Assembly (NCBI GenBank): GCA_964016885.1
Contig: OZ024744.1
Span: 69,998,001 to 70,062,000, forward strand
Origin: Eledone cirrhosa
Lineage: Eukaryota
Reading direction: 5' to 3'
DNA: 64,000 nt
The translations under genes and the position numbers were made by a program. This document shows positions 9,211-63,827 of this stretch, piece after piece. Each line of letters begins with the position of its first letter. Position 1 is the stretch's first letter. Under the pieces are notes generated by a model. It was not told the DNA's origin, did no database searches, and saw only the letters and a program-made list of their open reading frames with translations.

Positions 9211-9271
9211 ATTTTATTATATATATTTCAAGGGTACCAAGACACATTGATACGCTTTCATCAGATAAAAT
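9211..9271 (-). ncRNA. Type I hammerhead ribozyme (ATTTTAT family)
   Basis: ATTTTAT CTGATGA AAGCGTATCAA-tgtgtc-TTGGTACCCTT GAAA TATATA TA ATAAAAT. Intact core, 7-bp stem I, 10 of 11 pairs in stem II. Confidence 0.85.
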
Positions 9272-9401
9272 GCAAAGTTTGTTTTATAAATAGAGACATA
9301 CCCATAAAATTCACTGGATAGTCAATTGACTATCCAGTCAATTTCCAACCGATAAGGTATGACTTTCATGGGTATATCTCTATTTATAAAACAAACTTTG
9401 C

Positions 9402-9462
9402 ATTTTATCTGGTGAAAGCGGATCAATGTGTCTTGGTACCCTTGAAATATATATAATAAAAT
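9402..9462 (+). ncRNA. Hammerhead mirror copy with core mutation (CTGGTGA)
   Basis: Reverse-complement copy of 9211-9271 with an A>G change in the catalytic core. Confidence 0.7.
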
Positions 9463-9744
9463 AAATATGGTTTTATAAATATACTTTCCATTTATTTAAT
9501 ATCATTGAATATATACATATATATATATATATATACATGTCTACAGTAGCTTGTGTACTCACTGAGTTCCTGTGTATAATGTACATCCATAGATTTAAGC
9601 TTTCAAAATGTGTTACAGAGGTGTGTGATATACCTGAAAACAGCTAAAAACTATAAAACAGCTATTGTATTTCATGATAATTTTTTCCACTATTTCCATT
9701 CAAGTCAGTTAACAAATATGTATGTATGTGTGTATATATGTATG

Positions 9745-10282
9745 TCGGGTCACTCTTGAGTGCTACTGGTAACATGTAATCCAGTACAACCTGTCGCATG
9801 GTCGGGTCGTCGGCGACTAAACCGGCAACCCCACCAAGTTTACTTGGTTAGGAGAGTGATTTTGGACACCCCGCAGGACAAAAAAGAAAACCTGACAAAG
9901 GGCGGAAGAACTCATAAGAGTCAGCGGCCATCCAAAAGTGTGTAAATATATATACACATGTACCGTGCGGTTAAATCACTGGGAGTGAAGGACACCTAGC
10001 CTTTGTCAAGGCATTCTTCTAGTAGAAGGCAACTCAGGAAACTGGGATAACTCCGATATAAAACCTGTGGCTCAGTAGTTACCGCCATTAATGTAGATCT
10101 TTTCTTCTTTTCGGGTTATAGCTACAGTCGCTCAGAGAGTGGGATTGGCTCAGTGCACAGTCTTTCCTCACTTTAAAAAATATCTTCACGCACAGGCATT
10201 GCACGATAGAATTAATTGATAATTATTAATAATGGGATATTGTGCAATGGCCATACTCGATAATGAGGGGGCAGTCATCATG
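9745..10282 (+). mobile_element. Non-autonomous interspersed repeat with RTE-5'UTR-like motifs (copies at 42778-43331 + and 47541-48138 -)
   Basis: Shared GGCGACTAAAC(C/T)GGCAACCCCACCAAG...CTAG(T/G)AGAAGG..AAC and 3' end GGCCATACTCG...CATCATG. Every copy is flanked by TA/TG microsatellites. Confidence 0.75.
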
Positions 10283-10660
10283 TATGTGTGTGTGTCGGTG
10301 CATGTGTCTGTGTGTGTATGTATGTATGAATGTATGTATGGATATATATATAAATATATATGTATATATGTAAGTATGTATGAAAGTATGTATGTATGAA
10401 TGTATGTATGGATACATATATAAATATATATGTATATATGTAAGTATGTATGAAAGTATGTATGTATGTATGAATGTATGTATGGATACATATATAAATA
10501 TATATGTATATATGTAAGTATGTATGAAAGTATGTATGTATGAATGTATGTATGGATACATATATAAATATATATGTATATATGTAAGTATGTATGAAAG
10601 TATGTATGTATGCATGTATGTATGTGTATATATGTATATATAGATATAGATATAGATTTC
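10283..10660. repeat. Compound TATG/TA microsatellite with a higher-order unit of about 70 bp
   Basis: Repeated block GAATGTATGTATGGATACATATATAAATATATATGTATATATGTAAGTATGTATGAAAG, about 4 copies. Confidence 0.85.
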
Positions 10661-10871
10661 CACTTAGTTAAAATTACCCATAGTGTTGGGATTTCCAGAC
10701 ATGCACTCCCTTCCCTCCCATCATCCGTCCCACACACCTACCACATTGTAATCACCCCACCGTCTTAACACTCAACACATACATCTACCTCCCCAATCCC
10801 CATGTATCTCCCTCACCCCACCCCGAATCAACACTTTAAAGTGGTCATATTGAGTATAACTATATATATGT

Positions 10872-11255: not shown

Positions 11256-11377
11256 TTATCGTTTTCGGTACGCCCGGCCGATTAACTCACTCGATATGCA
11301 AATTAGGCTGCTCAACCGTTAATATGTATAAGGAAAGTATATACTTTCAAACGTTCAATCATCTGACAGGAAGGTAT

Positions 11378-11420
11378 ACGATGCTGACGATAGCTAATAA
11401 GCTTGAAACTAGTACATCGT
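11378..11420 (+). ncRNA. Minimal type I hammerhead ribozyme (CTAG family)
   Basis: ACGATG CTGACGA TAGCT-aata-AGCTT GAAA CTAG TA CATCGT. Perfect 6-bp stem I, palindromic stem III, GUA cleavage triplet. Confidence 0.85.
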
Positions 11421-11677
11421 TCCTGTGTCAGTGTTGAACAAAAGGGCGACGATGGTTGTGCATGTATGTATGTATATACATACTACTGTACGTCTGTACA
11501 CATATATGTATGTACGTATACATACCTATATATATATATGTATATACATATAAACCTGTCAGACAGTCCTATACGAGCAAGATGACCAATCTTGCCCTAA
11601 GAGGGACAATTTCCGTCTAAACCCATGCTAGCATGGAAGATAGACGTTAAACGTTGATGATGATATATAAATATAAT

Positions 11678-13620
11678 AAAAAAGTGGAATAAATCTTCTA
11701 ACCATCTGAAGCAAGTGACAAAGAAGGCAGTGCTTGAATTTGAACAGTGCATAGCAACCAATCCTGACAGTAAGGTGTTCTGGAAATATGTTCATTCAAA
11801 GCAGAGACCTCACTCTCCAGTTGGTCCTCTTCGCAATCCCCACACAAGCCAGATCACTGACGATCCCAAAGAATGCGCACAACTCATTGCTGAGTGCTAT
11901 GCAAGTATTTTTACTGTTGAAAACCAGAATGTACCATCTCCACCATCTCTAACATCAAATTCCATAACAACTATGGAATTTACACCTGCAATGTTGCGAC
12001 GTCACCTTAAGAATAAGCGCAACTATGCCTCCCCTGGTCTTGATGATGCGACATACCTGCTTCTCAAACGTGGCGGGTATTTCCTTTTGCGCCAGCTTTC
12101 TTTCTTCTTTCAATACTGTCTCAACAATGGTGCTACTCCGGAGCAGTGGAAAACTGCCAGTGTCATTCTCCTGTTCAAAAAGGGCAACCGCATGTCACCT
12201 GTCAACTATCATCCAGTCAGTCTTACTAGCTGTATGGCCAAACTGATGGAATCCTGTGTCAGAGAAACACTTTGTAACTTCTGGAGCTCTCACAGCCTCA
12301 TCCGGCCCTCACAGTTTGGATTTATCCCTAACTCCAGCTGCTGTGATCAGCTTATCGAGTTCCTTGAAGACATCACCCGGATCACTGACAGCGGCTCATG
12401 GGTGGATGTTGTTTACCTTGACTTTGCTAAGGCTTTTAATTCTGTGCCACACAAAAGACTTATGGCAAAACTCTCTGCAATTGGTGTGAGGGATGATCTT
12501 TTCGACTGGTTGAAATCCTTCATTCTCAGCCGAAAAGAAGTAGTCACGGTTCTAGGACAGCATTCTTCACCATATGAGATGTCATCTGGTGTACCGCAGG
12601 GATCTGTTCTTGGTCCCCTTTTGTTTGTGGCATATATTAATGACATAGATGCCAACTTACAGAATTTCACGGTACTGAAATATGCAGATGACATCAAGCT
12701 GTACCTTGAAATCAAAAGGACTGATCCTGAAATTTACAACTCTTTCCTACAATCAGACCTGGACACAATGCAGCAATGGATCACAGACTGGCAACTGAAG
12801 CTGGCTGTGGACAAGTGTACCACCATGCATTTTGGAAGGAAAAATCCAGCTTCCACATACTCCCTCCACAACACTGATATCAAGAAGTCCTGTCAGCAGC
12901 GATTTGCGTTGGACAAAGCATGTCTCTAAGATTGTCAAGAAGGCCGAGGGTGTCTTGGCATCACTCAGCAAGACCTTTGTTAGCCGCTCTCCAGCCATCT
13001 ATTTAAAACTGTATACAGCTATGGTACGACCACACTTGGAATTCGCATCATCAGTCTGGAACCCTTATCTTGCTCAGAACATTGACCTCCTGGAAACTGT
13101 TCAGAGACGTGCAACCAAGCGCATACCCTCCATCAGACACCTACCATACTCCGAACGCCTTGCTTCCCTGGGCATGGATTCATTGAAGCTCCGACGTCTG
13201 GCAATGGACTTGGTGAATACCCACAAAGTTATTAACCATCTCGCCAATTGCAACCCTGAGCACCTTTTTGATCTCCATGTGTCTAACACACGTGGACATG
13301 CCTACAAGATCAGAAAACAGCACAGCTCCCATGACTTTCTTAGACATTTTTTCACGCTCAGAGTTGCTGTGAAGCATGGAACAAACTGCCTGCGTCAGTT
13401 GTTAGCTGCCGAGACACTGCATCCTTTAAGACACTCATGCTTCCCGAAATACGCCAAGGCTACACCTGATGTACCCCTTCCATACACATGCACACGTGTG
13501 TATCATGACTCGTGCACTGTTCATTTTACTGATGTTTGTGCATTGCCCTATGTACTGTACATGCTCTTTTTGATGAGTTGTGGTGCACCTGGGCACTGTA
13601 CACAATATTTCATTATTAAT
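11678..13620 (+). mobile_element. 5'-truncated CR1-clade LINE (ORF2 RT domain and 3' UTR)
   Basis: NYHPVSLTS, YLDFAKAFNSVPHKRL, SGVPQGSVLGPLLF, YADDIKLY, VRPHLEFASSVWNP, TRGHAYK. A small deletion near 12890 (versus the copy at 29075-29125) shifts the frame. ATT-repeat tail. Confidence 0.95.
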
Positions 13621-14735
13621 CTCCAGATATTCTGCCTAAATGGTGAACAGGTGTGGTCGCCGTTTATCAGACGGGCCTTTCCGCAGCTCATTTCTTTGAC
13701 TGAGCTGCAGTCCTGGGTCAAGAAGAGACCGAGACTGGGTGACTGGCACCTGGAATGTTGCCAGGCACTCACTGCCCTCTACCAAGCGGGCAATGTGATC
13801 AGTGGAACTTCCACTCTCGAGTTCTATAGAGGATTAGTGGTGGGCAAGTGCGATGACGCACTCGGAGAAGCTTTGGGCCTCGACAAAGTCGAACTGACCA
13901 GTCTGTACCGGAGGACTTTTGAGCCGGGGACGATGGACAATTTCCAGAAATCCCTCGCTTGGCAGTGCTACCGGGGGGCACTGCCGGTTCGGGATAAACT
14001 CTACAGGCACGGAAATGCTGTCAGACGGACCTGCCCAAGATGCGCACAGAACGACGAAACCGTTCTGCACGCACTTGTCCAATGTCCGTGCATTACTGAC
14101 TTGTGGAGTTATGTCGAACAGGTACTGTCGCGTGTGGAACGAATCCGGTTATCGGCCGAGTCCATAGTGAAGATCGAGCCGCCACCTTCCTTAGGTCAGG
14201 AAGAGCAGGACATTTTCCTCTGTCTGGTGGCAGTTGCAAAAGAGATTATATGGTGGACCAGGTTGAAAGGACTAAAGACAGACACTTTTCTCTTCGGCCA
14301 ATCCCTCATCAACTTCTTCAAGTTTCACCTGGAAAGAAGGGTGAGGGTGGAGAGAGAAGTGCTTCCCCCAGTACATTTGCTAAAAGGTGGGTGAATGTGG
14401 CAAGAATGGCTCGTGTGAATGGGCCTACTCTGACCATGCGCCTATAGGCTGGCTAACTTGAGGAGAGGGGTGCTCTCCCTGGGTGCCCTAGAAGCGCAGG
14501 GTTGTTCAGGCTTGGTGGGGCACCCGAATCACCCCAGGGTCGTCCACCCCCTATCGGAGAATTTATTTTGTTATATTTATGCATAGTTTATTTTATATTT
14601 TTATATTTTCATTGTTAAATTAGTCTTGCCATTGTGCACTTTTACTCGACCTTATTGTAAACCCCACTGTCCCTGTCTTTGTATTGTCCCCTACATGTCG
14701 GCCCTTGTGGCTAATAAATGAAATCATTATTATTA
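13621..14735 (+). mobile_element. L1/Tx1-clade LINE 3' fragment
   Basis: AWQCYRGALPV...CPRCAQNDETVLHALVQCP (zf-RVT-type C-terminal Zn motif), 3' UTR with AATAAA and an (ATT)n tail. Confidence 0.9.
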
Positions 14736-39789: not shown

Positions 39790-42600
39790 ATGTAAACATG
39801 AGACATCCAGATAGGATTGTAGGAAACAGGGATGTAAGTGACATTCACGTCTGCTAGCCAGATGACCTCTCCAACAATGCAGGATTTCAGTTCCTTGTCT
39901 GTCCCATATAAGGTTTATTGTATCTGCACTGTGCTACTGTTTCTATTAGAATGTTCTACCAGTATTCCTTATTTTAAAAGTGTTGAAATATTCTGGTTTG
40001 TGTGTGATTGTCAAGGTAATATTTCATATTCATCATCATCATCACCGTTTTACATCCATTTTTTCCATGCTAGAATGGGTTAGATGAGTTGTCTTGTTGT
40101 GGGCAATGCCTAGGTCAGGTGACCACATCTTGCTCATACAGAACTGATTTGGGCTTGGTTTCTACAGCTGGATGCCCTTCCTAATGCCAACCTCATTTAG
40201 AGTGAGTACTGGGTGCTGTTTGTCGTGACATCTACACAACCACTTTACAGTGTGGGCTGGGTGCTTTTTGTCATGACACCTACTACAATGTGGACTCAGT
40301 GTTTTTTTTTTTGTTGTAACACCTACATGACCACTTTACAGTGTGCACTAGTTAGTATTGTAAATGGTTTTAGCTTCAATGTACCGTCTTATGAGAAAGT
40401 AGTTCCTTGTGGACATATTAGGAGGTAGCTGCTAATAAAATAGATGATATCTCCTCCATTGGTATGGTACAATTAACATTGTTTTATCATAATATGGAGA
40501 CTTGGAGGCACACTTATCTCTTTTATTGATCAAGAATTTAGTAGCTATCTCCTGTTTCTAACTAGTGAAGTTGTATCTAATGCATCTGTCGCAGGTCCTG
40601 TAGAGCTATTCTTCATGTCAATTTTGTTAGTATCATCTAACTCAGGGGTTGGCAACCTTTTGGGGTGTGTGGGCCACATAGCTATGCAGTGTCTCGTTGG
40701 CGGGCCACATAGCTATGCAGTGTCTCGTCGGCGGGCCACATAGCTATGAAGTGACTCATCAGTGGGCTACATAGCTATGAAGTGTTTCGTCAGTGGGCCA
40801 TGATATCAAAATATAATAAATTTGCTCAACCTCAAACTGCTCTGTCCAGAAGGCTACCTTAATCTCGAGATTTAACCCTTTAGCATTCATATTATTTTAT
40901 ATATACTATTATATTTTAATGGTAAAGGCTTTACCTCACATAATTATCTCACATAATATCGAATCTATGAGATTTTGAAAGTATTTATTTTAAAAACAAT
41001 ACCTTAACATCAGTTTGAGTGGCCAGTTACAGCCAGTTTCAACAGAAAGAGGTAGAGAATCCTGGCCGGTTTTGGCCGGTTTTGGCCGGTTTGAACACTA
41101 AAGGGTTAAAGAAGAACAATGTATTTTATGTGATATGACTTTAATGACATTCCTTACTGCAAATAAAATATAGACAGATATGCTAAATTGTTTAATGAGA
41201 TACTTGTTTTTGCCTGTTTGTTACTGTCACGCCAAAAATTACGTTCAGCTAAGTGAGTCTTGTTGCTTGACATGTTCTCTAGTCGGTATTCTAATCCAAA
41301 ATAATTCAGAGCACCTTTTCAGTGATTGTTTAGCCTAAAATTGAAACCTTCGCGAGCCGGTGGTTGTCAACCCTGGCCTAGCTGGTGGGATATGTACCTA
41401 TGCATGACTTTGTCCTGTTATCCAGAGGCTTGAAGAAAATTGGTCAACTGACTACCAACCTCAGTGCATTAACTTCCCTACTATATGTCTTGAATCATTG
41501 ACTTAGCATTTAAGATTGTATTTAAATAGATAACTATAGCCACCCATAGGTCACATGGAACTATTGTACACTCAGAGTACTAAAACATGAGGAGATTTTT
41601 TTTAGTGGGGGTAGGGTGGGCATAGGGGTTGCCTACACTCAAGATGTTATTTTTTTTTTTACATTTCTTCAACAGGGATGATAAAATATTCACAACCTGT
41701 ATGAACAGCAATTCAGACAAGATGTCAACCTGAAATATTCCTGTCAATAGCCTCATTCTGTTTGTGACTTTAGTTTTGTTTCAGTTTTTAGCAGTAGTTG
41801 TGAGGATTAATGTTATAGTCAGTCTTTTAATGTCATTGACTAGAGCAGATGGACTTTATAGCAGACAGCTCTTTCTTTAGCAAGGTTTAGTAACTCTAGC
41901 ATCCACGAGCAAGATATAGGGTCAAATATTCTTAGAGTCAAGCCATAGTTAGACTTTTCCAATGCTGCTTCACCTCCTTGAAAATAGTTTGTCGATAGAG
42001 AGCTGTTTGACTCTTCCTTTAGCATTCATGAGCAAGATACAGAGTCAAACCCCTTCTTATAGTCTAGATATAGTTAGACTTTTCAATGCTGCTTCACTTT
42101 CTTGAAGATAGTTTGTCGATAGAGAGCTGTTTGACTCTTCCTTTAGCATTCATGAGCAAGATACAGAGTCAAACCCCTTCTTATAGTCTAGATATAGTTA
42201 GACTTTTCAATGCTGCTTCACTTTCTTGAAGATAGTTTGTTGATAGAGAGCTGTTCAGCTTTTCCTTTAGCAAGGTGTAATAACTCTAGCATCCATGAGC
42301 AAGGTACAAAGTCAAACCTCTTCTTATAGTCTAGCCATGATGTTAGTAGACTTTGGTGGTACTAATTCCCTTCCTTTGTTAAAGAGATGCTCAGCACAGC
42401 TTCAAATGATTTCCGTTCAATCTATCTACTTACCAGTCACCACCCTGTTTGTTTGTTAGCGATATTGGAGAAACTCATTCAAGCAACCTAGATACAGTTA
42501 GTATATGGCATTTCTGCATGCTATGGGCTTGTTTATAGTTGTTCCATGTATATCTCTTGGTTCTTAAGCATGTGTGTTGTCCATGCAACAAATATATCTC
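39790..42600 (-). mobile_element. Ancient R4/Dong-like (RLE-type) non-LTR retrotransposon relic, interrupted by younger elements
   Basis: Minus-strand remnants KPIACRNAIY*L (about 42500) and WLDYKKRFDFVPCSWMLEL (about 42285-42340) resemble NYRPITC / WIDYKKAYDSVPHSW. RYNKPY...DKELKSCIVGEVIWLADVNV (about 39840-39930) resembles the RLE endonuclease. Confidence 0.6.
40643..41375. mobile_element. hAT (Charlie-like) non-autonomous element with internal 34-bp tandem subrepeats and a nested piggyBac-like MITE
   Basis: Termini CAGGGGTTGGCAACC / GGTTGTCAACCCTG; about 4 repeats of GGGCCACATAGCTATG..GTG. Confidence 0.75.
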
Positions 42601-44100: not shown

Positions 44101-44494
44101 CCCATCGCGTACCAATACATTAGTTAAATACCATTCTTTCATCTCATACAACACAATAACTATACAGAATGGAAATTATATCGTCTTTAAGGATTTGTAA
44201 ACTTCATTATAAATATATCTAAATGACAAACATTTATCAACATAAGAAACCATGGGACATAACTCTATAATACGATAAACAGAGTTATTTTTCTTATACT
44301 AAGAATTCTATACTATTTTAGATTAAATGGAAGTTGATTGTATTACTGTAATGCGATATGAAAAACTAAGGTCTCAATTAATTGAAAATATCATTTTTGT
44401 CGTATAAAGAAAATAAAAATACGGGGGATACAATTACAAAAAAAAATAATAATTCATTTCTCAAATTAATTGGTGCAACCGGTTTCCCATTACA

Positions 44495-44865
44495 ACTGGA
44501 GTTGGTCTCGACTGTAATGGCGGCAACCGACCAAACAGGACAACACTCTTTTCGTTGGGTGGAAGTAAATTTCTAATCTGGGACGTCACGTGCTGTGACA
44601 CGTTCTCCGCCTCCAGTTTTGACACTTCGCCCATAGGCGAGAAATATCGGTCGTTCTTCGATAGGTTTGCGGTCGAGCCCGTAGCAGTGGAGACTTCTGG
44701 TGCCCTTGACCCTAGGGCCACATCCTTGCTCAGAATTAGCACAGAATTGGCTACCTGTAGGTATGAGCCTCGCGAGCTGGAATGGCTCTTCCAGCGCGTC
44801 TCCCTCACCATGCTCTGGGGAAATGCCTTCTTTATTCTGTCCGCCGGGGCCACAGGGCAGCCAAA
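44495..44865 (+). mobile_element. Second CRE-clade RLE fragment
   Basis: LIWDVTCCDTF...KYRSFFDRFAVEPVAVETSGAL...WLFQRVSLTMLWGNAFFIL. Confidence 0.85.
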
Positions 44866-45265
44866 GCATGGGCTCCTATTTGCTCATAATAGTGAGAGAC
44901 GGAGACAGTGAGAGTTTGGTTCTTTTCTGTTCGGACCTAGTGTATATGTATATTTTTCACTGACACACACATCCCCTATTGAGGTGGAGTAATGGTTCTG
45001 CTTTCTTGCCAACTTTGGCATTAAACTTATAAACTTGTTTATATAAAATTTATGTATGTGGACTAGGGTTTTCCAGTAATTTTGCAAAACTTAAACATAA
45101 AACAGTTAGATAGCCAAAATACTGGAACTTGACAAAACCCCCAACCACAAAAAAAAAAAAAATTGTTGGCCTTGTGTCTAAATTAGAAACCATTAAAATT
45201 TAGCCCCAGGTCAGGTCTCATTGAGAAGACCTCTAAACAAGGGTTCAAGAAACGGGTTAACCCAC

Positions 45266-48304: not shown

Positions 48305-48687
48305 CATATATATATAAACAGACGCATATACACATACATATACATTCATACACACATACATACACATATACACACACACATATACACATCCATACATGCA
48401 CACATATACACACACATACATACGCACATACACACACATATACGGATACATACACATACATACACACGTATACACAAGCACACACATACATACACACATA
48501 TAGACACATACACACACATACATACAGATACATATACACACACACATGTGTGTGCGTGTGTGTGAGTGTGTGGTGAGTGTGTGTAAAGAAAAGGTAAAGG
48601 AAAGAAGAGTGCTCTATGTATAGTACAGACGAAATATATATATACATATATACATATATATATATATATACATACATATATACACAT

Positions 48688-48740
<53 letters not shown>

Positions 48741-48778
48741 TATACACATATATATACATACATATATAAACACATATA

Positions 48779-49674
48779 CGAGGTGTGTCAGAAAAGTTCC
48801 AGGACTGATGTCACAAAAGATTTATTTCAAACCCAAACTTCACACTGAGAGTTTTCTCCTTCAAAGTAATCCCCCTGGAGTATATAAATGTAATCTTAGC
48901 TCTCTGCAGCGATCAAACTTTTTTCTTCATAATTTTATATACATGTCCTCTGTTTCAGGTCGTCAAGCAATGAGCACAGAGCAACGAACAAACTTGAAAA
49001 TTCCGTCAGAAGCACTGGGATTGCTGCAGCAAGTGTATGGAGATGAGACGATGTCACGGTCATGTGTTTTTGAGTGGTGCAAGAGGTTTAAAGAAGGACG
49101 CGAGGACGTGGAAGATGACCCCAGGAGTGGAAGGCCCTCAACAACCAGGACTGAAGTCAACGTTGCGCGCGTCAGGCAGATGGTGCGTAGCGATCGTCGG
49201 CTGACTGTTCGACTGATGGCAAATGAGCTGGGCATGAATCGGGACAGCGTCTGGAAGATTCTCACTGAAGATTTGGACATGCGGAAAGTCTCCGCGAAGA
49301 TGGTGCCAAAACTGCTGAACGATGACCAGAAGGGTCGACGCATGCAAGTGTGCCAGGACATCCTCGAGGGTCTTGAAACCGAACCGGACTTGTAAGGGAC
49401 AGTCATCACCGGTGATGAGTCATGGATCTTCGAGTACGACCCGGAGGGGACCCGTTTTGAAGACGTGGAAGACATCAAAAAGGCCGTGACGAAGGAACTG
49501 AGGAGGATCCCAGAAGAATCATTCCAGGAATGCATGCAAGCGTGGCAGAAAAGGATGGGAAAGTGCATTAGACTCCAGGGGGATTACTTTGAAGGAGAAA
49601 ACTCTTAGTGTTAAGTTTGGGTTTGAAATAAATATTTTGTGACATCAGTCCTGGAACTTTTATGACCCACCTCG
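48779..49674 (+). mobile_element. Internally deleted mariner DNA transposon
   Basis: TIRs of about 60 bp (CGAGGTGTGTCAGAAAAGTTCCAGGACTGATGTCACAAAA...), TA TSD. Transposase remnants [44 protein letters not shown] joined directly to GTRFEDVEDIK (DDD domain deleted). Stop at 49393. Confidence 0.95.
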
Positions 49675-50264: not shown

Positions 50265-50310
<46 letters not shown>

Positions 50311-51289
50311 AGGGTGAAAGCAGCGATTCTTTGCTTAAACTTTAATCTGTTATTTTAATATATATATATATATATATATTTAGGGAATTGGTCACAGGGT
50401 TATTTACTTTGGTAAACGCCACTGCAGGCCAGCCACTAATTAAATTCGATACAGATATGATAAGGTTAACAAACTTACTCGTGAGTGAACTGACGGAGAG
50501 CCGGTCGCCAAATAATCAGCATGGTAAATTAAATGTTATTGAGACACGAGTAACATAATAATGATGTCAACAGCAGAAATTAGAGATGAAATGTATGTTT
50601 ATTTTTGTTGTAGCACAAATAATGTTGGTTAACTTGTATGGTTGAAGTTACACATAAAAGTGAGGTTACAAAAGGGAATGTGCCATTGCGCCGTTAAGCC
50701 GGCGAGGCTAGGGTGCAATATGTCACCGTTACATTATACGAGTTGCTGGCTTGAAGTTTCCGGTACAAGAGAGAGATTCTTCAAATCTTCGCGGGGAATT
50801 TCTTCCTCAGGGCGCTTAGGGATACATCCTCTTCTACTGGCGCTGATTGGCTGAACTGAGCCAAATCACGCACAGAGAATGCATGTGAGCCCGCAGAATG
50901 TAGGTCACTACAATACCCCCCTTCTAGACGGAAGTCGATACAGATTATTGAATCAACAAGAAAAAGGTTCATGTCTGCAAGCATTAACACAGAATGAAAA
51001 AAATGTACAGCAAAAGATGCAAAATGCATGAAAAGGTAACACTCTTCGCAATAAAGGGGCCCCAAATGCGATAAACACAAATAAATTTTTTGCTAGGCAC
51101 TGAAAATGCCACATGTAGCATAGATATAAAAATGCACTAAAAAAAATGGACTGTGTCAGAATTGACAACAGTCGTAATGTTACGAAAAATAACATATATT
51201 GACACTGCCGTAGGCAGTCAAGAATCAAAAAGCAACACAATGAAATATACAGCAAAAACAATTGGAAGAAGAAAAGAATACAATTCAGT

Positions 51290-54196
51290 TTATATTACTG
51301 CATAGCTTACGAGGCCAATGCACCCTTCGCCCAGAACGGGTCGTAGTTCTGTATGTTGATGGGGGGGGGGGGGGGGGAGAGAAATAGGCGAATGTGGCAA
51401 AGAAAAAGAAGGGGGCATTTGAGTTTCAAGTGTCATTGTGTCATTGTCCAGGTTTGCTCGTTTGAGACGATCAACGGAAACCGTTTCCCTGGAACCCCGA
51501 ATGTCCAGTGTGAAATGTTTGTCTATGCGAGCAAGCACACGATAGGGTTCAGAGTACGGCCGTCGAAGAGGGGGTCGCACGGCGTCGTCTCTAACGAACA
51601 CATGTGTCCACAAGGCAATATCCCTTGGGACGGCAGTTTTTACAGTCTGCTTCCTAGTGCCCATCGGTGGTAGATCCTTGAAATAAGAGTGAAGCCGGGA
51701 CACGTAGGAAGCGGGGTCCTGCGAAGTCAGGTCAAAAGGGGCCAGCATTTGCCCCGGTAACGCCAGAGGAGTACCATAAACTAATTCGGCAGAGGAGAAC
51801 CCAAGGTCCACCTTTACCGTCGACCGAATACCCAACAATACAATAGGTAGGTACTCGCTCCAACGTGAAGAGTCCATGGAAGCCCTTAAGGAGGCTTTGA
51901 GTTGCCTGTGGAATCTTTCCACCATTCCGTTTGATGCTGGATGATATGCCGTGGTTCTTATGCGAGTAGCGCCAATAATTTGTGTTAATTCACGGAAGAG
52001 GTTCGATTCAAATTGACGACCGCAGTCTGTTGTTATTGTGGTTGGTACTCCAAAACGAGCGATCCATGCAGATACGAGAGTACGCGCTGTCGTTTCAGCA
52101 GTGATATCTGTCATAGGGATGGCTTCAGGCCAACGCGAAAAACGGTCAACGATCGTCAAAATATACGAATAACCACGACTAATCGGCCACGGGCCGACGA
52201 TGTCCACATGAATGTGACGAAATCTGGCATCAGGACAGGTGAAAGTTCCGAGAGGAGTTTTAACGTGCTTATAAACTTTTGACTTTTGGCAAGCGACACA
52301 GGAACGGCACCAAGCAGCAATGTCACGTCTCATATCAGGCCAGAACAATCTGGCTGTTATGAGTTTTACTGAGGCTGATACTCCAGGGTGAGAAATGCCA
52401 TGTAAAGCGAGAAACACAGTTCGTCGATGTTCCACTGGGACTAGAGGTCGAGGTGAGTCCAACGAAACATCACACAGGATTTGTCCGTCAGCCGTTGAGA
52501 TCGGAATGTATTTCAGTTTGCAATGTACAAACTCCGGCGATGTAACATCCAATGATTCGAGAGTGGGTTGAGCAGCTGCCATTCGATGTAAATCTATCTC
52601 CTCGGAAGACGAAATCGATGCGATCGGCAGGCGAGACAGCGCATCGGCCGCTGTATTCAAAGAACCCGGAATATGTTGAATGTCGTTCGTGAACTGTGAG
52701 ATGAAGTCCAGATGTCTCGTTTCTCTGGGCGAGTATTTGTCTGCTTTAGTTCGAAGAGCAAACGTCAAAGGTTTATGATCAGTGAAAATAGTGAACATTC
52801 TACCTTCAAGTACATGAGCAAAATGTTTCACTGATAAATAAATTGCTAATAGCTCCCTGCCAAAGGTGCTATAGCGAGTTTCGGCAGGTTTTAACTTTCT
52901 CGAAAAGAACTCGAGTGGTTGCTGTAACCCCTCACACTTCTGCTGTAAGACTGCGCCCACGGCGCTATCCGAAGCATCAACACAGAGCGACAGCTCGGCG
53001 TTGGGCATGGGGTGGGCGAGCAAAGATGCAGTCGTTGACGCTTTCTTCACTTTCTCAAAATCCGCCAGGTGCGTTGCATTTAATGAAATGTTCATATTCT
53101 TCCGTCGACAGTTTTTAAAAATTTCTGTCGACGAGGACAGTAAGCTGGAACAATTAGGCACGAATCGCCTATAAAAATTCACAAGGCCCAAGAATTGCCG
53201 TAATTGTCGAAGCGAACTTGGCGGAGGCAAATCCAAAATTGCCTTAACTTTTTCCGGAAGGGGCCGAATACCATCAGCATCAATAAGATGGCCCAAAAAT
53301 GTTAGCGATGTCGAGCCGAAAACACACTTAGCGGCATTAACACGAACATTATATTTCTGTAAACGCAGAAATAAGATATCCAGATGTTTGGAATGTTGTT
53401 CAGGAGAAGAACTAGCAATCAGTACATCATCGATATACGTGTAAACAAAATCGAGACCACGAGTGACATCATCCATGAATCGTTGGAAAGTACTTGCAGC
53501 ATTTCTAAGTCCGAAAGGCATAGTGAGGAACTCGAATGATCCGAAAGGAGTGGCAATAGCAGTCTTTGGAATATACTCCTTTTTAACCGGAATTTGATTA
53601 TAAGCGCGGATCAAATCAAGCTTAGAAAAGATTCTGCAACCCTGCAATGACGATGCAAAATCCTGTAAATGCGGGATTGGATAACGGTCAGGCACAGTAA
53701 TCGCGTTTAAGCGTCGGTAGTCATCCGTCGGTCTCCAATCACCAGAAGATTTAAGTACCATATGCAAAGGCGATGCCCAAGGACTTGTGGAACGCCGAAT
53801 TATTCCTAATTCCAGCATGTGGTCGAATTCAAGACGTGCAGCTTTCAACTTCTCTGCAGATAATCTTCGAGGACGTGAGAAAACGGGTGGACCTGTAGTG
53901 GATATAAAGTGTTCAATCACATGATCCGGACTAGCAATTCGTAATCTTCCTTGCGTCAGCTGTGGGAATGATTTTAACAAACTGTGATACTGGTTGCCCA
54001 CTTCAGCCAAGAAAAAAGCAGGGCTTACTGTGGCGATCTCCGGCTTTGAACTCTCGAACGATAGGCCTGTATTAGCATCAAAAAGTTGTTGTCTGCGGAT
54101 GTCAATCGACAAGGAAAAATGGTGGAGGAAATCCGCTCCCAAAATGGCGTATGGCAAGTCGGCGATAGTAAACTTCCACTTCAATTCACGACGCAA
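51290..54196 (-). CDS. pol: Gypsy Pol: C-terminal protease part, RT, RNase H, integrase
   Basis: [115 protein letters not shown]. Confidence 0.97.
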
Positions 54197-54419
54197 ATTT
54201 TTAAACCGAAGAGGAAGCGAAATTTTCCCGTACGTTCGAATGGCCGTGTTGTTGATTGCTCGTAAATTGATATTTGATTCAGATGGGGTTTTTTTAAGAT
54301 AACTGACTGGCCAAATACTTAGTGACGCGCCAGTGCGACAAGAAAAAATTATTTTGACAGCAGATCGTACACAAAAAGATGACGGTTTGGTCGAGTTTCC
54401 CAGAGTTCACTAGCCGCCC

Positions 54420-55196
54420 CTAGTGGCTCTGATTGGCGTTTTCCGAACTCCTATAGTTGCAAGGCGCCCGACAGCCAATGTTAACATGATACCAACAAAT
54501 CGAAGAATTACTGCTGCCTGAAGTGTAGTGTTGGCGAGGAACAGAAGACGGTGGCGAACGGTACTCGTAGCGGTTTCGAGGAATAGCAGACGGAGGCGAA
54601 CGGTACCTTAAACGTTGAGAAGGCTCTCTATGTTGTACAGTCAAATCTTCTACCTTTTTGGTGAGAGCTTTAATCAACTCGAACAGTTTGCTGTCGGCCA
54701 CATAAGGATTATGCCGATTGCTGTTCGAGTCCACCTCAAGTATTCTATCCGCGAACGCGGCAAGTTGCTCTAACGACTCCCTCTCCAAACTATTAATCAA
54801 AATCCTTTGCGCACTTGGCGGTAAACGTGAGAAAAAGAGCTGCTTTATGAAGGGGGTGTCAATCCCCTGGGAGTCGCTCAACTCCCGCAAATGTCGCAAA
54901 TAGGAGCTCGGCTTCCTGTCACCCATTTGAGCATCGTCCAACAACTCCTGAAAACGACTCTCTACCGACTTAGTATTTCTCCGAAGAATTTCGTTTTTTA
55001 ATGAGCCGTAGGTAACGTCGGCGTCCAAATCTGTCACAACGTCCTTCACCGAGAATGCCAAGGAAACAGGTAGGCCATTGATCAGGACCTTCAGCTTTTG
55101 CTGTTCTTTTGTCTTGGTTAATTCAAAGAAACATTCCAGCTGCGCAAACCACAACTTGATGTCGCCTGCGAAGGACGGCAAATGATGTTGACTCAT
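54420..55196 (-). CDS. gag: Gypsy Gag-like protein
   Basis: LPSFAGDIKLWFAQLECFF...MGDRKPSSYLRHLREL...ICWYH motifs of invertebrate Gypsy Gag; lies upstream of pol. Confidence 0.88.
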   Translation of the reverse strand: MSQHHLPSFAGDIKLWFAQLECFFELTKTKEQQKLKVLINGLPVSLAFSVKDVVTDLDADVTYGSLKNEILRRNTKSVESRFQELLDDAQMGDRKPSSYLRHLRELSDSQGIDTPFIKQLFFSRLPPSAQRILINSLERESLEQLAAFADRILEVDSNSNRHNPYVADSKLFELIKALTKKVEDLTVQHREPSQRLRYRSPPSAIPRNRYEYRSPPSSVPRQHYTSGSSNSSICWYHVNIGCRAPCNYRSSENANQSH

Positions 55197-56063
55197 GGTG
55201 CCACGTATTTGATGAATTCTTGGTGTTGGTTAATAGTTAGCCAGGTGTTGCTGCTGATGGCTGGTACTTGGTGGTAACCGTTTTGAAATACTGCTCATTT
55301 TTTTCTTTAAAAAAAAATTCTAAAGAAAATTTGATTAAAAGAAAAATCATTTTCCATGAAAGTTATGACAGAAATATTGTGCAGGCCGCGTGCTTCAACA
55401 AATGGAATATTATGAATTTTATGGACTTATGCTAAGTGAGTCTAGCTACCCGATTCGAACATTCCAAATGTTAAGCCATTCCACATTGCCGTTAAAACGA
55501 ATGGCGAATTCAAATAGGCTGCGTTTTCATACTTAATCGTCGAAGGTCACCAATTTAGGGAATTGGTCACAGGGTTATTTACTTTGGTAAACGCCACTGC
55601 AGGCCAACCACTAATTAAATTCGATACAAATATAATAAGGTTAACAAACTTACTCGTGAGTGAACTGACGGAGAGCCGGTCGCCAAATAATCAGCATGGT
55701 AAATTAAATGTTATTGAGACACGAGTAACAGCAGAAATTAGAGATGAAATGTATGTTTATTTTTGTTGTAGCACAAATAATGTTGGTTAACTTGTATGGT
55801 TGAAGTTACACATAAAAGTGAGGTTACAAAAGGGAATGTGCCATTGCGCCGGAAAGTCGGCAGGTTAAGGTGCAAAATCTCACCGTCACATGCACGTGTT
55901 GCTGGTTCGAAGTCCCAGGTGCGAGAGAGAGATTTTCTTCAAATATTCGCGGGTAATTTCTCTCTCAGGACGCGTAGGGATACATCCTCTTCTGCTGGCG
56001 CTGATTGGCTGAGCTGAGCCAAATCACGCACAGAGAATGCATGTGAGCCCGCGGAATGTAGGT

Positions 56064-56111: not shown

Positions 56112-56517
56112 CAGACGTGTGGCTGAGTGGTTAGAGAATTGGATTCGCAATCGTGAGGTTGTGGGTTCGATTCTTGGACCGGGCGATGCGTTATGTCCTT
56201 GAGCAACACACTTTATTTCACGTTCCTCCTTCTACCTGGAGTTGCGACCGATAGATAGTACTAGCAATTGGAAAGACCAACGGAAACATGGTTTCCTCGG
56301 TCCGATTTGACGAAAGTCGATCGATTAAAAAAAAATATATATATATTGATTCTGTTTTCCTATGATTTTTATCGTAAATTTTTCAATGCATCTTCTCTTT
56401 TCATGATATCTTCTATATTTGGATTACATTGAGTTCTTCATACGGATTGGACACTACCGTATATTTTGGTAGATTTATCTACACACACACATATATTTAT
56501 ATGGGATAACAAGTTAT

Positions 56518-57371
56518 CAATGATTATTTACATACATGACCTCCTTTCCAACACGAGAGACATACAGAAACATATGTATATATTGATGCACAGTGGGTTG
56601 ACATCCATTATAATATTTTAGCATGGCAATTTACATTCAAAGATTAAAGTCATATTAAAAGAAAACAAAATTAAAGTTAAAATACAACATTGGCAGTTTA
56701 CGAAGATAATGCAAGAGGATAGTTAGAAGTAGTTAGTGTATGCAATAGTTACACGTGGGGCATGCACGTGTGTCTTATTTATATAAGATTATAGTGCGAC
56801 AGGGTGTTATATGTAATACAAGCACTTTAAGCGGGCAATCAAGCATCCAATATTGAATCATCGTAGATTATGTGAAGGACATATAATCTATATATTACGT
56901 TTCCTGGATTGTGAAAATGGTGGTGTATACGAAAACCATAACATTGTTTTGCTTCTCATTTTTAATATTTTTAATATTTCTCTGCACACAAGCTTCTATA
57001 TCATACATATAAAAAATACTTTACCAATACAACCCCCATAATACTCTTGATTGCCCGCTTAAAGTGCTTGTATTACATGTAACACCCTGTCGCACTATAA
57101 TCTTATATAAATAAGACACACGTGCATGCCCCACGGGTAACTATTGCATACACTAACTACTTCTAACTATCCTCTTGCATTATCTTCTTAAACTGCCAAT
57201 GTTGTATTTTAACTTTAATTTTGTTTTCTTTTAATATGTCTTTAATCTTTGAATGTAAATTGCCATGCTAAAATATTATAATGGATGTCAACCCACTGTG
57301 CATCAATATATACATATGTTTCTGTATGTCTCTTGTGTTGGAAAGGAGGTCATGCATGTAAACAATCATTG
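56518..57371. repeat. Long inverted repeat (about 325-bp arms, about 200-bp spacer)
   Basis: 56518-56843 is mirrored by 57046-57371; a hammerhead follows immediately. Confidence 0.92.
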
Positions 57372-57376
57372 AAAAA

Positions 57377-57425
57377 TTGCTCCGAAGACTCCAAACCTCG
57401 GTTTGGAAGAAACAATTGTAAGCGA
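57377..57425 (+). ncRNA. Minimal hammerhead ribozyme (core variant CCGAAGA)
   Basis: TTGCT CCGAAGA CTCCAAACC-tc-GGTTTGGAA GAAA CAATTG TA AGCGA. Confidence 0.7.
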
Positions 57426-57624
57426 ATAAATGGTTTGAACAGAACTTTGATTCATGTAATTTCTATATAACTGCTCTGTAGAACAACTGATGTTATTACA
57501 TTGAGCTATTTATCTTACTGGTAATAAGGTAGTAATAAATTACTGTCTTTCACTATTTAGGGTTTAAAATATATATAACTATAAAAGGTTTTAGTATATA
57601 CATAACCATAAATAGTATCCTTAA

Positions 57625-58675: not shown

Positions 58676-58718
58676 ACGCTGTACTAGTTTCGAGCTTATT
58701 AGCTATCGTCAGCATCGT
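58676..58718 (-). ncRNA. Minimal hammerhead ribozyme (CTAG family, copy 2)
   Basis: Minus strand: ACGATG CTGACGA TAGCT-aata-AGCTC GAAA CTAG TA CAGCGT. Confidence 0.8.
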
Positions 58719-58790
58719 ATACCTTCCTGCCAGATGATTGAACGTCTGAAAGTATATAATCATCTGGCAGGAAGGTATGTCCTGGATTTT

Positions 58791-58848
58791 TTCATTCTGA
58801 TGAATGAAAGCAATGTTGGTTGCTTTCAAGAAACCACTGGTAAATGAA
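58791..58848 (+). ncRNA. Type I hammerhead ribozyme (CCACTGG family, copy 1)
   Basis: TTCATT CTGATGA ATGAAAGCAA-tgttgg-TTGCTTTCAA GAAA CCACTGG TA AATGAA. 6-bp stem I, 9-bp stem II. Confidence 0.88.
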
Positions 58849-58881
58849 ATAATTATCTTATGTTGTTTATTACATAACTAA

Positions 58882-58943
<62 letters not shown>

Positions 58944-59066
58944 CAAAATGTTAATAAATGAAAAATATTCTCATAATTAAAATATATATTTTATCATACA
59001 TATTCAATTCCAGTATTGGAATTGAATAATCAAAACCGTAGCGGTATGTCACATATTAAATCTTAT

Positions 59067-59130
59067 ATTTTGTCTGATGAAAACGTACTTAAACACCATT
59101 GTATCTTTGAAATCTAAACTATAATAAAGT
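59067..59130 (+). ncRNA. Type I hammerhead ribozyme (ATTTTAT family variant)
   Basis: ATTTTGT CTGATGA AAACGTAC-ttaaacaccatt-GTATCTTT GAAA TCTAAACTA TA ATAAAGT. Confidence 0.75.
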
Positions 59131-59603: not shown

Positions 59604-59660
59604 TCATTCTGATGATTGAAAGCAACATTTTTTTGCTTTTAAGAAACCACTGGTAAATGA
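59604..59660 (+). ncRNA. Type I hammerhead ribozyme (CCACTGG family, copy 2)
   Basis: TCATT CTGATGA TTGAAAGCAA-cattttt-TTGCTTTTAA GAAA CCACTGG TA AATGA. Confidence 0.88.
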
Positions 59661-60086: not shown

Positions 60087-60137
60087 GAAAAAGTGAAGAA
60101 TAACATGGTCAACAGTACAAAAAAGGGGAATTTTTTT

Positions 60138-60395: not shown

Positions 60396-60474
<79 letters not shown>

Positions 60475-60494
60475 TTCAAAATATTAATAAATAT

Positions 60495-60558
60495 ATTTTA
60501 TTATACATATTTCAGAGATACTGAGCTATTTCAACAGTACGTCCTCATCAGATAAAAT
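60495..60558 (-). ncRNA. Type I hammerhead ribozyme (ATTTTAT family)
   Basis: ATTTTAT CTGATGA GGACGTACTG-ttgaaatagct-CAGTATCTCT GAAA TATGTA TA ATAAAAT. Confidence 0.85.
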
Positions 60559-60911
60559 AAGTTGATGCCTGACATACCTTGACTATGTTGATGGTTATAA
60601 TTTAGTCATGGCAGTGATTAGTTATGACAAAACTCAATATTTATATACCTTAAGTTGAAACATGAAAAATTACATATAATACAGAGGGTGCGTATGAGAA
60701 TGTGTAAAAAGATATATAAATAATTAACAATATATAATACATAAACTTCTATAACTGTTAAAAATTTAAATAATAATAATATATTCATACCTCATTATTG
60801 TTGATAGTGTAAGTGAGAGATCGAGATAGCAAATCATGAGGAAAGAGTTTTGTCATAACTAATCACTGCCATGACTAAATTATAACCATCAACATAGCCA
60901 AGCATCAACTT

Positions 60912-60975
60912 ATTTTATCTGATGAGGAAGTACTGCTGAAATAGCTCAGTATCTCTGAAATATGTATAATAAAAT
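60912..60975 (+). ncRNA. Type I hammerhead ribozyme (ATTTTAT family, mirror copy)
   Basis: ATTTTAT CTGATGA GGAAGTACTG-ctgaaatagct-CAGTATCTCT GAAA TATGTA TA ATAAAAT. Confidence 0.85.
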
Positions 60976-61429
60976 ATATTTGATCACATGAATGTCTATA
61001 TTTATTAATATTTTGAACTAATATATTAATAACTCCAGAAAACTTCTTGTAGAGTGCTTATAATCTATTGTGAAACTTTATTCATTGATGAATTCATTGA
61101 ACCTTGTTAAACTTTTAATTATATATATATATAGTAATAATAATAAATTTGAAGACTAAAATCCAAAGAGGGCTCAATAGGGATAAATATATATCAAATA
61201 TATAAGAACCGTAGAGCAAATATTTATTAAAATAACAGATTAAAATTTAAGCAAAGAATCGCAGCTTTCACCCTTAACGGGATCTTCTGAAACTAAAAAA
61301 ATCAGTGAGCGCAGAAGTAAAACAAATATTTATATCCCAGACAGAAATGTTAACTTTTATTTCTATATACTTTTTTTAATATAATTGTCTGCTGGTGGAT
61401 TTTGTATTTCGCTCTATATCTTCACCATC

Positions 61430-63730
61430 AACAAGAGGAAGGCATCGACGACAACAGTGACGTTAACAACAACAACTCTACCATTAACAAGAGGAAGCAT
61501 CAGTGACTCACCTCCAGCCACAAGGTCCTATGACAAACTGCTAAGTTGCTCGCATGTGTGCGTGCTGAACTCTGGGTCTTTCCGCTGGGAACAACCCCCT
61601 GTCCCCCCCCCCCTTTTTTGTACATTCATCCATTCACTCATTCATTTACTAACATTCTACCTTCCTGTGTCTCACCCTCCATGCAACCCCTTCTTTTCTC
61701 TCTTGTTTTCTGACACCTCCATATATATAGGTGAGCTATGAGGCCTTCTTACCAGCACTTTCCCTCCCACCCACACACGCCAGTCACCCACCCCTGATGC
61801 CGCTCGGTACCCCAGTCCCCGGCCCCACGCCCCATCACCATCCTTCCAAACCGACACCTGCAGCACTTGCAGCACCACTAACAAATGGAAGAGGGGCCGG
61901 AACTGTCTGGGGTGTGGCTGCTTCCACCACCTCACCTGCGTTGGCTTGACTCGTCGAGCTTCCAATGCCCTCGCAGATTGGAGGTGCAGGAGCTGCCTCT
62001 TTCCCACGTCTTCTCAACCACGGCCGTCTGGCACACCACTAGATGGGACAGCGAGCTTGTCTGACGCCCGAGCCTTGCTGGTCAACATCTCTCGGCTCAG
62101 GCGGCTCCGGAAGATCCCACTCAGGATCCCGAGAACGGCACGGGTGCCGGTAGCCGATGCCCTCACCTCCTCGATTGAGAGCGCCCTGGACTCCAATCGA
62201 TCCAGTGACTGGGAGCGGTTGCTCTATTTCGCCCCACTCGCCCTCGGCCTCCCCAGCTCTGGCGCTGACCGGGTCGGCCGGTCAATAGCAGACTTCGTCA
62301 AGGCCAATGTCTCGTCCTTTGGGCGAGCGCCCATTCCAAGCGTGCCCAGGGACGCCACACACCCCACCCTCAGGTACCCCTTATCCTCCACCCCTGAGGC
62401 CAGCGCCTAGCGTTTTCGTGACCAAGTAAACGCCAAGCTTATCATGGGTGATGTCTCGGCCGCAGTCAGAGTTGTTCCCACCGAGGAGGTCCTGGCTGCT
62501 CTGCGACTCAAACACCCTGAGCCACCCACTGATCTCAGACCCATACCCTCACCCGACCCCCACTTGCTCCTTGTGGCTTCTGATGCAGACATCATGTCCG
62601 CCATCAGTTGCTTCCCAGCTAGCAGGTGCGGAGGTGTTGATGGTCTCCAACCAGGCCACCTCAAGGAGTTGACATCCCCCCTCTCCGCTGAGGCCGGGCG
62701 CCGTCTTCTGAGTGAAATTGTAGTGCTCACCACTAAGCTCATCCATGGTGCCCAGGACCTTTACGCCCGTGGCCTCTTTTTTTCGGCCAACCTCACCGCT
62801 CTCAGGAAGAAAGAGAGTGGCATACGCCCCATTGCTGTGGGCAATGTATTCCGGAGGCTGACTGCCAAGGTGATCTGCAAGTCCGTAACACACGAAATGG
62901 GTGAGGAGTTTAGTCAGGTGCAACTAGGTGTCGGCGTGTCCGGTGGTTGCGAGGAGGCCGCTCATGCAACCAGGCAGTTCTTCAACAGCTGCCCATCAGA
63001 ACCGGCATCCAGGGACTCCAGGCACCTCATTGTCAAGCTTGACATGAGGAATGCCTTCAACTCTCTACGCCGGGATAATCTGCTCGAGGCCTGCCTCAGC
63101 TGAGCCCCCCCCTGCCTACCCGCTGGCCGACCTGTCATATGGAGCACCAAGCATGCTCCTTGCTGCTGATACAGTCATACCCTCGGCTACTGGGGTCCAA
63201 CAGGGTGACCCTTTGGGACCCCTCCTGTTCGGTATTGACCACATCGCCCAGAGTATCACGGCCCCTCTCAACATTTGGTATCTGGATGATGCTACCTTGG
63301 GCAGGCCCGTACAGACGGTCTACCATGACCTTCAATCGGTGGTTCCTGCCCTGGCGGGAATCGGCCTCCAGGTCAACTCCGCCAAGTCGGAGGTGGTGAA
63401 CGTCAGCCTCGATGTTGCGAGCTTTGCAGCCTCTTTCTTGGACGTGCGGTCCATTCTCCGCCAGGTTCAGGTGACCCTCAAAGAGGATGTCCTCATCCTC
63501 GGATCACCGATCCACCCACCGGCCATCCGCTCCACCATCAGGTCCAGGCTTCAACAGCTCCAGACTCTCACGAGCCGACTGGGCTTGACTGACGGCCACC
63601 CAGCTCTCTTTCTGCTGAGGAACTGCTTCGCCATGCCGAAGCTCCTCTATACACTCCGCAGCGCTCCGTGCTACACCCAGACATCTCTCCTCGCTGACCT
63701 CGATACTTGTATCCGAGCAGCAGCCGAATG
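61430..63730 (+). mobile_element. CRE-clade non-LTR retrotransposon (N-terminal Cys-rich region plus RT), frameshifted and 3'-truncated
   Basis: LRLKHP, GGVDGLQPGHLKEL, ANLTALRKKESGIRPIAVGNVFRRL, QLGVGVSGGCE, KLDMRNAFNS, GVQQGDPLGPLLF, WYLDDATL. GC-rich island. Confidence 0.9.
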
Positions 63731-63758
63731 TTTTTTAACCTTCATATCATGTCTCCCT

Positions 63759-63827
63759 ATTTTATCTGACGAAAACGCAAATGTCATCTCATGATGATAA
63801 TTGTTTTTGAAATGCGCATAATAAAAT
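63759..63827 (+). ncRNA. Type I hammerhead ribozyme (ATTTTAT family)
   Basis: ATTTTAT CTGACGA AAACGCAAATGTCATC-tcat-GATGATAATTGTTTTT GAAA TGCGCA TA ATAAAAT. Palindromic stem III TGCGCA. Confidence 0.87.

Follow-up and report, generated by a model that had tools for sequence, protein, structure and literature searches.

Which element do the hammerhead-like motifs recurring in a stretch of Eledone cirrhosa DNA belong to, and why do they keep a mismatch in helix II together with an AUA cleavage triplet? The stretch analysed, called the window hereafter, comprises 64,000 nucleotides (nt) of contig OZ024744.1 (assembly GCA_964016885.1, positions 69,998,001 to 70,062,000 of the forward strand). A preliminary description of its sequence had proposed a hammerhead family whose structure is conserved under selection and whose helix II bulge may be a tertiary contact defining an unusual AUA-cleaving subtype. 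The motifs are probably the pseudo-long terminal repeat (pLTR) 3' ends of related (TA)n-targeting families of Penelope-like elements (PLEs) in an animal genome, each with a type I hammerhead of the dimer type. The hammerhead is a structural variant of the known PLE pLTR hammerhead and not an AUA subtype.

The order of elements in each copy is stem I, CUGANGA, helix II, GAA, A15.1...U16.1, A17 and stem I'. The type I core (C3 U4 G5 A6 N7 G8 A9, G12 A13 A14, A15.1-U16.1, H17) is found in five of the six full copies, the exception being the A6G copy at 9402(+). Stem I is open and has 7–8 base pairs (bp), beyond which its pairing does not reach. Helix II, whose region encloses 28–36 nt, has 6–7 of its first 8 positions paired, and helix III is limited to 2–3 bp. 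The six copies represent four lineages (A–D), 9211/9402 and 60495/60912 each being the two arms of one insertion. Lineage A has an intact core at 9211-9271(-), with C10.4 at 9254, C11.4 at 9233, the helix III palindrome UAUAUA and a predicted cut between 9218 and 9217; its inverted second arm at 9402-9462(+) is decayed (core A6G at 9412, pair 6 broken). Lineage B (59067-59130(+); C·C at 59084/59105) features two G·U pairs in stem I, a helix III that is 3 nt longer, and a weak helix II (-0.4 kcal/mol alone). The left arm of lineage C (60495-60558(-)) has C·C at 60541/60517 and the helix III sequence UAUGUA, and the right arm (60912-60975(+)) has A·C at 60929/60953. Lineage D (63759-63827(+)) displays the core CUGACGA, C·U at 63776/63805, the helix III sequence UGCGCA and an extended helix II. 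Lineages B and C are related upstream of the motif (16/21 identical positions, reached by 0/300 shuffles). Predicted folding gives pairs 1–3 of helix II a P of 0.77–0.95 in lineages A, B and C; in the 63759 copy ViennaRNA favours a slipped register and these pairs have a P of ~0.2. The five loci listed in the preliminary description are all there, each with CUGANGA, GAAA and an AUA triplet, and their helix II has the reported build of three pairs, a mismatch (C·C, C·C, C·C, A·C and C·U) and a G-led helix. The list had missed the sixth copy at 9402-9462(+) and the 3'-half copies at 58988-59005(-) and 63947-63964(-), and its loci reduce to the four lineages. The stem I AUUUUAU/AUAAAAU that it described as shared is present at the other named loci, but 59067 reads AUUUUGU/AUAAAGU.

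The architecture of the insertions is the basis for the PLE assignment. Insertion A is an inverted repeat at 9157-9516 whose arms are 89% alike, with a nested fold-back centre at ~9300-9380, and is located between (TA)n tracts at ~9039-9072 and ~9509-9535. Insertion C is an inverted repeat at ~60470-61022 (arms 91%) with a 209-nt spacer at 60636-60844(+), which is multi-copy and is interpreted as element sequence lying upstream in the right-hand copy; its left arm ends in (TA)n at ~60400-60470. Both have a tail of ~85 nt at one side only, at 9072-9156(-) and 61023-61107(+). The two tails are homologous, with 34 of 45 aligned letters identical and none of 2000 shuffles scoring as high. The inverted 5'-truncated copy and the tail at one end are thus seen in full at loci A and C, while loci B and D have inverted partial (3'-half) copies starting at fold-back hairpins. 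The partial copy of locus B (58939-59028(-)) is a 5'-truncated 3' end that runs from GAA on, with H17 changed to G; it features a fold-back hairpin at 59001-59028 and ends in (TA)n at ~58889-58938. The 3' end of locus D (63828-63964) holds (TA)n at ~63859-63915 and the inverted 3'-half copy, which has a short fold-back at its 5' junction. Stem I is followed at 25–70 nt by a (TA)n or TA-rich junction in the copies of A, C and D and in the partial copy of B; none is evident downstream of the 59067 copy. PLE insertions are described as having an inverted 5'-truncated copy, a tail at one end and a preference for (TA)n (PMC8557442), the tail being the stretch between two internal start sites of reverse transcription (PMC11167929). 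The motifs are assigned to PLEs because their inverted 5'-truncated copies, fold-back junctions, one-sided tail and (TA)n targets match this pattern. The whole loci A and C are predicted to fold as hairpins of -226 and -248 kcal/mol. Note that both tails start with a conserved ACUCCAG after a U/A-rich stretch (9145-9156(-) and 61030-61040(+)), which resembles a 3' splice acceptor, and that retention of introns near the pLTR is known from PLEs. The two tails share no open frame after ACUCCAG.

The second feature of PLE hammerheads is found in helix III. Delimited by A15.1-U16.1, it is self-complementary at 8 of 8 positions in five of the six copies and three of the four lineages, and between UAUAUA and UGCGCA both halves of the palindrome have changed in a compensatory way. 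The duplex between two molecules has a computed energy of -2.2 to -10.5 kcal/mol, compared with +4.7 kcal/mol for the 2-bp hairpin of the monomer. Judged from its sequence, helix III is of the dimer-type design described for PLE hammerheads (PMC4209133, PMC6765202). The AUA triplet is accounted for by the palindrome, which sets A16.2, together with the conserved A17. The idea of an unusual AUA-cleaving subtype therefore has to be abandoned, all the more so as AUA, A10.1-U11.1 and the mismatch at pair 4 each occur in published PLE hammerheads. The AUA triplet is also carried by ELVd(+), sCYDV-RPV(+) and csc RNA(-), and of the four triplets compared in purified ELVd hammerheads it was the slowest (PMC1636495).

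Data beyond the window were obtained by aligning four of the 19 sequencing runs listed to 60636-61390 at 80% likeness. Lineage C is present in high copy number with a PLE-like 3' bias: depth rises ~tenfold at ~60900, just before stem I, and restriction-site-associated DNA (RAD) reads number ~590–1500 over the hammerhead versus 2–27 over most of the spacer. The read matches end at 61017 (293/499) and 61094 (67/82), which correspond to the main end and to the tail. Position 10.4 (60929) is C in 904 of 950 reads of run X17 and in 175,397 of 175,699 depth units of run X1. The A·C of the 60912 copy is thus a private change, the lineage-C consensus being C·C. At position 11.5 (60952) C is found in 1029 of 1406 reads, so that pair 5 is G-C in most copies. 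A contig of a second organism (organism B) has the same C·C and G-C, and in a third (organism C) the 5' strand is identical and stem I is of the lineage-B type. In run X1 the single C>G site with a frequency of at least 5% is at 61018, showing that a repair at 60953 is not common in this run.

The alignment of the six copies bears on whether the fold itself is maintained. A generic descriptor (stem I of at least 7 bp, at least 6 of the first 8 stem II positions paired) has seven matches in the window, six in this family and one in another, and none in each of 60 block-wise dinucleotide shuffles. In the six-row alignment 97.9% of 96 cells pair, against 36–56% in slid controls. Two-sided changes are found in 4 of 16 pairs (in helix II pairs 2, 3 and 6, in helix III the third), a number reached by 3 of 500 shuffles; as the structure was derived from these very sequences, two rows of which are nearly identical, the shuffle counts are not probabilities. 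Stem I is kept in sequence, five of its seven pairs being invariant and none changed on both sides. Shuffles align just as well as loop II and most short flanks do, such short AT-rich comparisons having little power. The helices being compensated while loop II and most flanks align like shuffles, the hammerhead fold is, on this pattern of changes, under selection in the parent elements. The claims that stem II differs among loci and still pairs, and that structure is selected, are borne out at the level of element families, by the three two-sided changes in helix II and the compensation in helix III. Searched with the covariance model of the family, the window yielded no additional full member; the next scores, 24.3 and 22.2 bits, both belong to the other hammerhead family. 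The stretch 41117-41175 was inspected as a candidate member and rejected.

The closest published relatives are the metazoan minimal hammerhead ribozymes (min-HHRs) of PLEs (Cervera & De la Pena 2014, PMC4209133). They share with the present family type I topology, a palindromic helix III of 1–2 bp, a long helix II, and opposite-strand pairs 100–700 bp apart that derive from truncated elements. Among the 56 representatives in Fig. S3 of that paper, counted by eye from the supplement text, AUA is found in 2, R10.1-U11.1 in 10, no extra nucleotide after A9 in 2, and a mismatch at pair 4 in 2 (C·A in S. purpuratus 1 and U·U in Clonorchis 2). The nearest rows in this figure are Drosophila willistoni, which combines A10.1-U11.1, the palindrome and AUA, and Marsupenaeus japonicus, with A10.1-U11.1 and no extra nucleotide after A9, as here. 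Compared with these rows the present family alone combines a helix II region of 28–36 nt having C·Y kept over four lineages, a sequence-conserved stem I of 7–8 bp made nearly all of A-U pairs, and AAUAAA over the cut. Variable and weak helices II have been noted before (PMC3088659). The Hydra-clade PLE hammerheads (Craig et al. 2021, PMC8557442, File S2) are alike in their (TA)n targets, in the position of the hammerhead near the 3' end and in the common U11.1, some rows having a 7-nt core and G10.1·U11.1. Their helix III of 3–4 bp is mostly an odd palindrome with a central base, which fits the family at 58797 and 59609 and not this one; none of the six motifs was found in the text of that supplement, where line breaks can hide matches. 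The Poseidon PAc element of Anolis (Frangieh et al. 2024, PMC11167929) also has a pLTR hammerhead upstream of two reverse-transcription starts that define the tail, and is a model for protein-assisted cleavage. Its open reading frame (ORF) starts at helix II, while no frame is conserved here through the motif (no AUG in D, an early stop in C) and the tail has ~85 nt. Canonical type I hammerheads and non-LTR retrozymes of the S. mansoni type (PMC7229834) are alike in core, type I topology and weak palindromic helix III; the family described here lacks their 4-bp helix II with contact loop, the bulge in stem I and the head-to-tail tandem units. The viroid and satellite hammerheads with AUA (PMC1636495) are likened to it by their triplet and, in sCYDV-RPV, by a long helix II with internal loops; they differ in having a stable 6-bp helix III, in belonging to plant circular RNAs and in being active as monomers. 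The combination of features described here was not found in the literature and supplements searched, so its novelty is provisional.

A mechanism compatible with these features can be proposed. In tandem element RNA, two hammerheads would swap their helix III strands to form an 8-bp duplex and cut after A17. Cleavage at this position would probably be slow and helped by the protein of the element, as in the Anolis PLE. The PAc hammerhead cuts only with protein present (PMC11167929), and the published PLE min-HHRs are slow, a test for hidden tertiary contacts having found none (PMC4209133). The main end and the tail would arise from two starts of reverse transcription, both downstream of the ribozyme, and the inverted arm would result when reverse transcription folds back at the 5' end. 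The copies in the window would be dead by-products of this process: they have no ORF attached, and a transcript of A or C would form a long hairpin hiding the ribozyme. Genomic copies are unlikely to act, because A and C transcripts are predicted to fold in this way and B has lost the palindrome.

The mismatch of helix II raises a distinct question. Pair 4 is unpaired in all six copies, and lineage-C reads as well as the second organism keep C·C, so that the mismatch reported earlier is a stable family trait. Its cost is apparent from the 5–6 kcal/mol by which a C-G at pair 4 would stabilise helix II according to computation. The group has inherited the C·Y mismatch as a trait, and four lineages cannot show that it is selected. 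Its repair needs a transversion, and transversions are 2 of the ~13 changes in helix II positions 1–8 (counted by eye). At the substitution rate of helix II an unchanged site has P=0.44 and the absence of C-to-G repair P=0.88. The chance that C10.4 is kept in four lineages ranges from ~0.002 to 0.44, depending on the divergence assumed and for a site picked after the fact. It may quite possibly be tolerated, having simply not been repaired. A role in folding control or in recognition by a protein is a more tentative option, and a contact within the RNA tertiary structure is unlikely. A coding constraint on C10.4 through the AUG of the core was rejected: this frame has 14–15 codons in A and B, stops after 5 in C, and D is without AUG.

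The tertiary contact was the role suggested in the preliminary description. The known Hoogsteen contact of U1.7 with loop II requires that U1.7 be unpaired and that a 4-bp helix II be closed by an A (PMC11875169). It does not fit here: U1.7 can pair with A2.7 in all six copies and a pyrimidine is found at the equivalent of the terminal A of loop II. A different docking can be envisaged, in which C·Y and the conserved stretch C-G-Y-A / U-R-Y-Y bind the A-tract of stem I or U1.7, replacing the loop II contact and making the ribozyme faster. Such docking would account for the invariance of C10.4, G10.5 and A10.7-U11.7 over the four lineages while pairs 1–3 vary, for that of U1.7 and A1.8, and for the five stem I pairs that never vary; sCYDV-RPV(+) also joins AUA to a long helix II with internal loops (PMC1636495). 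A C in all four lineages has a chance of 0.002–0.008 if the site was free and saturated, but saturation is doubtful as the A and C tails still align at 34/45, and the unchanged site and the lack of repair are unsurprising at the helix II rate given above. This docking remains doubtful for further reasons: U1.7 is pairable and no A is present where the known contact requires one, helix II and stem I do not covary, helix II is perfect in a second hammerhead family of the window, and the published PLE min-HHRs are the slow ribozymes in which no hidden contact was found (PMC4209133).

Stem I may have a constraint of its own. A17 and positions 1.1–1.5 spell AAUAAA over the predicted cut (A|AUAAA) in all six full copies. 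If this hexamer is the poly(A) signal of the element, the ribozyme would cut through it on self-cleavage, and an element RNA would be either cleaved or polyadenylated. Both the sequence conservation of stem I and the presence of A at H17 would then be explained. Both stem I changes of lineage B spare AAUAAA, the background rate of the hexamer is 0.0011 per position, and U-rich tracts follow it. Among the 56 published PLE-type hammerheads, AAUAAA is found by eye within ~16 nt 3' of the cut in 9 and in the 5' flank in none, although the 5' flank is a biased control, being U-rich by pairing; in A. vaga 1 it starts at position 1.1 (PMC4209133). The third hammerhead-like family of the window has it 5 nt after the cut, but the family at 58797 and 59609 is without it. 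A single ancestral event in DNA of 74% A+T is sufficient to account for the six copies, and the tail-bearing copies show that templates run at least 130 nt past the hexamer. This overlap of cut and poly(A) signal is accordingly considered improbable as a functional arrangement. In the literature searched no report of AAUAAA spanning the cut of a PLE hammerhead was found.

The mismatch and the hexamer can be joined in one proposal: the cut would split the AAUAAA of the element itself, and the conserved C·Y with CGYA-URYY would form a patch that is a handle, for stem I or for the reverse transcriptase-endonuclease (RT-EN) protein, licensing cleavage. This is a long shot. If true, PLE hammerheads would gain a testable job; for insertion in vitro, cleavage was dispensable in PMC11167929. 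With this family the PLE hammerheads, already known in large number, gain a further structural variant. Its helix II region of 28–36 nt escapes Rfam and published descriptors (core-search spacer of at most 17 nt in PMC8557442). The fixed helix II mismatch and the hexamer over the cut provide handles on protein-assisted cleavage and on the competition between cleavage and polyadenylation.

Several observations weigh against the assignment of the motifs to dimer-type PLE hammerheads. PLE membership is read entirely from what appears to be PLE insertion architecture: no RT or GIY-YIG sequence is tied to any copy, to which at most 280 nt of upstream sequence is attached. The spacer of insertion C gave no Pfam match in three frames (X at stops) and no homologue in one. 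The tails have ~85 nt versus the 30–40 bp described for PLEs. Rfam returned no hammerhead match at the gathering score and none among the 150 matches listed at E<=10. The extra unpaired nucleotide between A9 and 10.1 of the PLE min-HHR consensus is found in 0/6 copies, and its G10.1-C11.1 is absent, replaced by A-U in 4/6 and G·U in 2/6. Lineage B has a helix III that is not palindromic. The reads counted come from copies inherited within one subfamily and do not represent independent events, nor can depth be taken as a copy number; run X17 has five C>G sites, two of them displayed, so that the exclusion of repair at 60953 holds for run X1 only. Some candidates were also discarded. A register with an extra nucleotide after A9 disrupts pairing in lineages A, B and C. 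One frame of the C spacer was suggestive by eye of an EN carboxyl terminus, for which Pfam and the homologue search were empty. An origin from Naiad elements, considered because of their 'half core' entries, was discarded as well: the single cephalopod Naiad 3' end compared, from the supplement of PMC8557442, is unlike this family.

Rather than by-products of full-length PLE insertion, the loci could be a non-autonomous retrozyme family, or one resembling miniature inverted-repeat transposable elements, that moves as an inverted unit. The spacer of insertion C is multi-copy, and the arm/spacer joints from 60636/60637 to 60845 recur in reads and contigs (29 and 22 reads, 12 and 9 starts), as expected for such a unit; one allele or a few descendants of locus C would also explain a recurrent joint. 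The junction differs at each locus, and retrozymes form head-to-tail tandem units (PMC7229834; bioRxiv 10.64898/2026.07.22.740005), whereas the window has only inverted pairs. Movement as an inverted unit is for these reasons judged rather improbable. That the motifs are chance patterns in AT-rich DNA, as their unremarkable whole-motif folding z-scores (-1.8 to +0.4) and the lack of an Rfam match might suggest, can practically be discarded, given that the descriptor found nothing in 60 shuffles, that pattern scans of viral (9 matches) and metagenome (16) contigs, some of them duplicates, gave none with a comparable helix II and at most 29.8 bits with the family model, and that the family is high-copy and common to different organisms.

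Besides the putative PLE ends, the window contains other hammerhead-like sequences. The second family is found at 58790-58849(+) and 59604-59660(+), with a perfect helix II of 9–10 bp, the helix III ACCA-C-UGGU and a GUA triplet; its helix III resembles that of the Hydra-clade row Hydra-1_oBim (PMC8557442). The 58790 copy, with a fold-back at 58717-58780, shares its terminal (TA)n with locus B. A third motif at 57376-57430(+) features the core CCGAAGA (U4C), a 7-bp helix II, the perfect palindrome ACAAUUGU and a GUA triplet; the inverted repeat at whose end it lies (56510-56843 / 57046-57379) measures 334 bp. Within (TA)n there is also a short repeat of very high copy number (61130-61311(-), 50307-50365(+)), which includes a degenerate hammerhead-like stretch (CAGAAGA, a 3-bp hairpin, UGAAA) and is deeper than the hammerhead family studied here in all four runs.

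The remaining sequence is animal-like DNA rich in microsatellites and long interspersed elements (LINEs), with one LTR element. A broken non-LTR element at 61742-63730(+), with a weak Pfam match to RVT_1, stops just before locus D; we take it to be CRE-like. A separate fragment at 44453-44911(+) resembles a restriction-like endonuclease domain. The LTR element is of Gypsy type (51290-55229(-)) and codes for gag and a pol of 1037 amino acids (RT, RNase H, integrase); possible LTRs of this element are the repeats at 46052, 50657 and 55815. Fragments of LINEs, including RT (11664-14394(+)), are found within 11664-14394(+), 37894-39608(-) and 48598-49395(+), among which there is presumably also a mariner-like transposase fragment. 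Several families of dispersed repeats resembling short interspersed elements are spread over the window.

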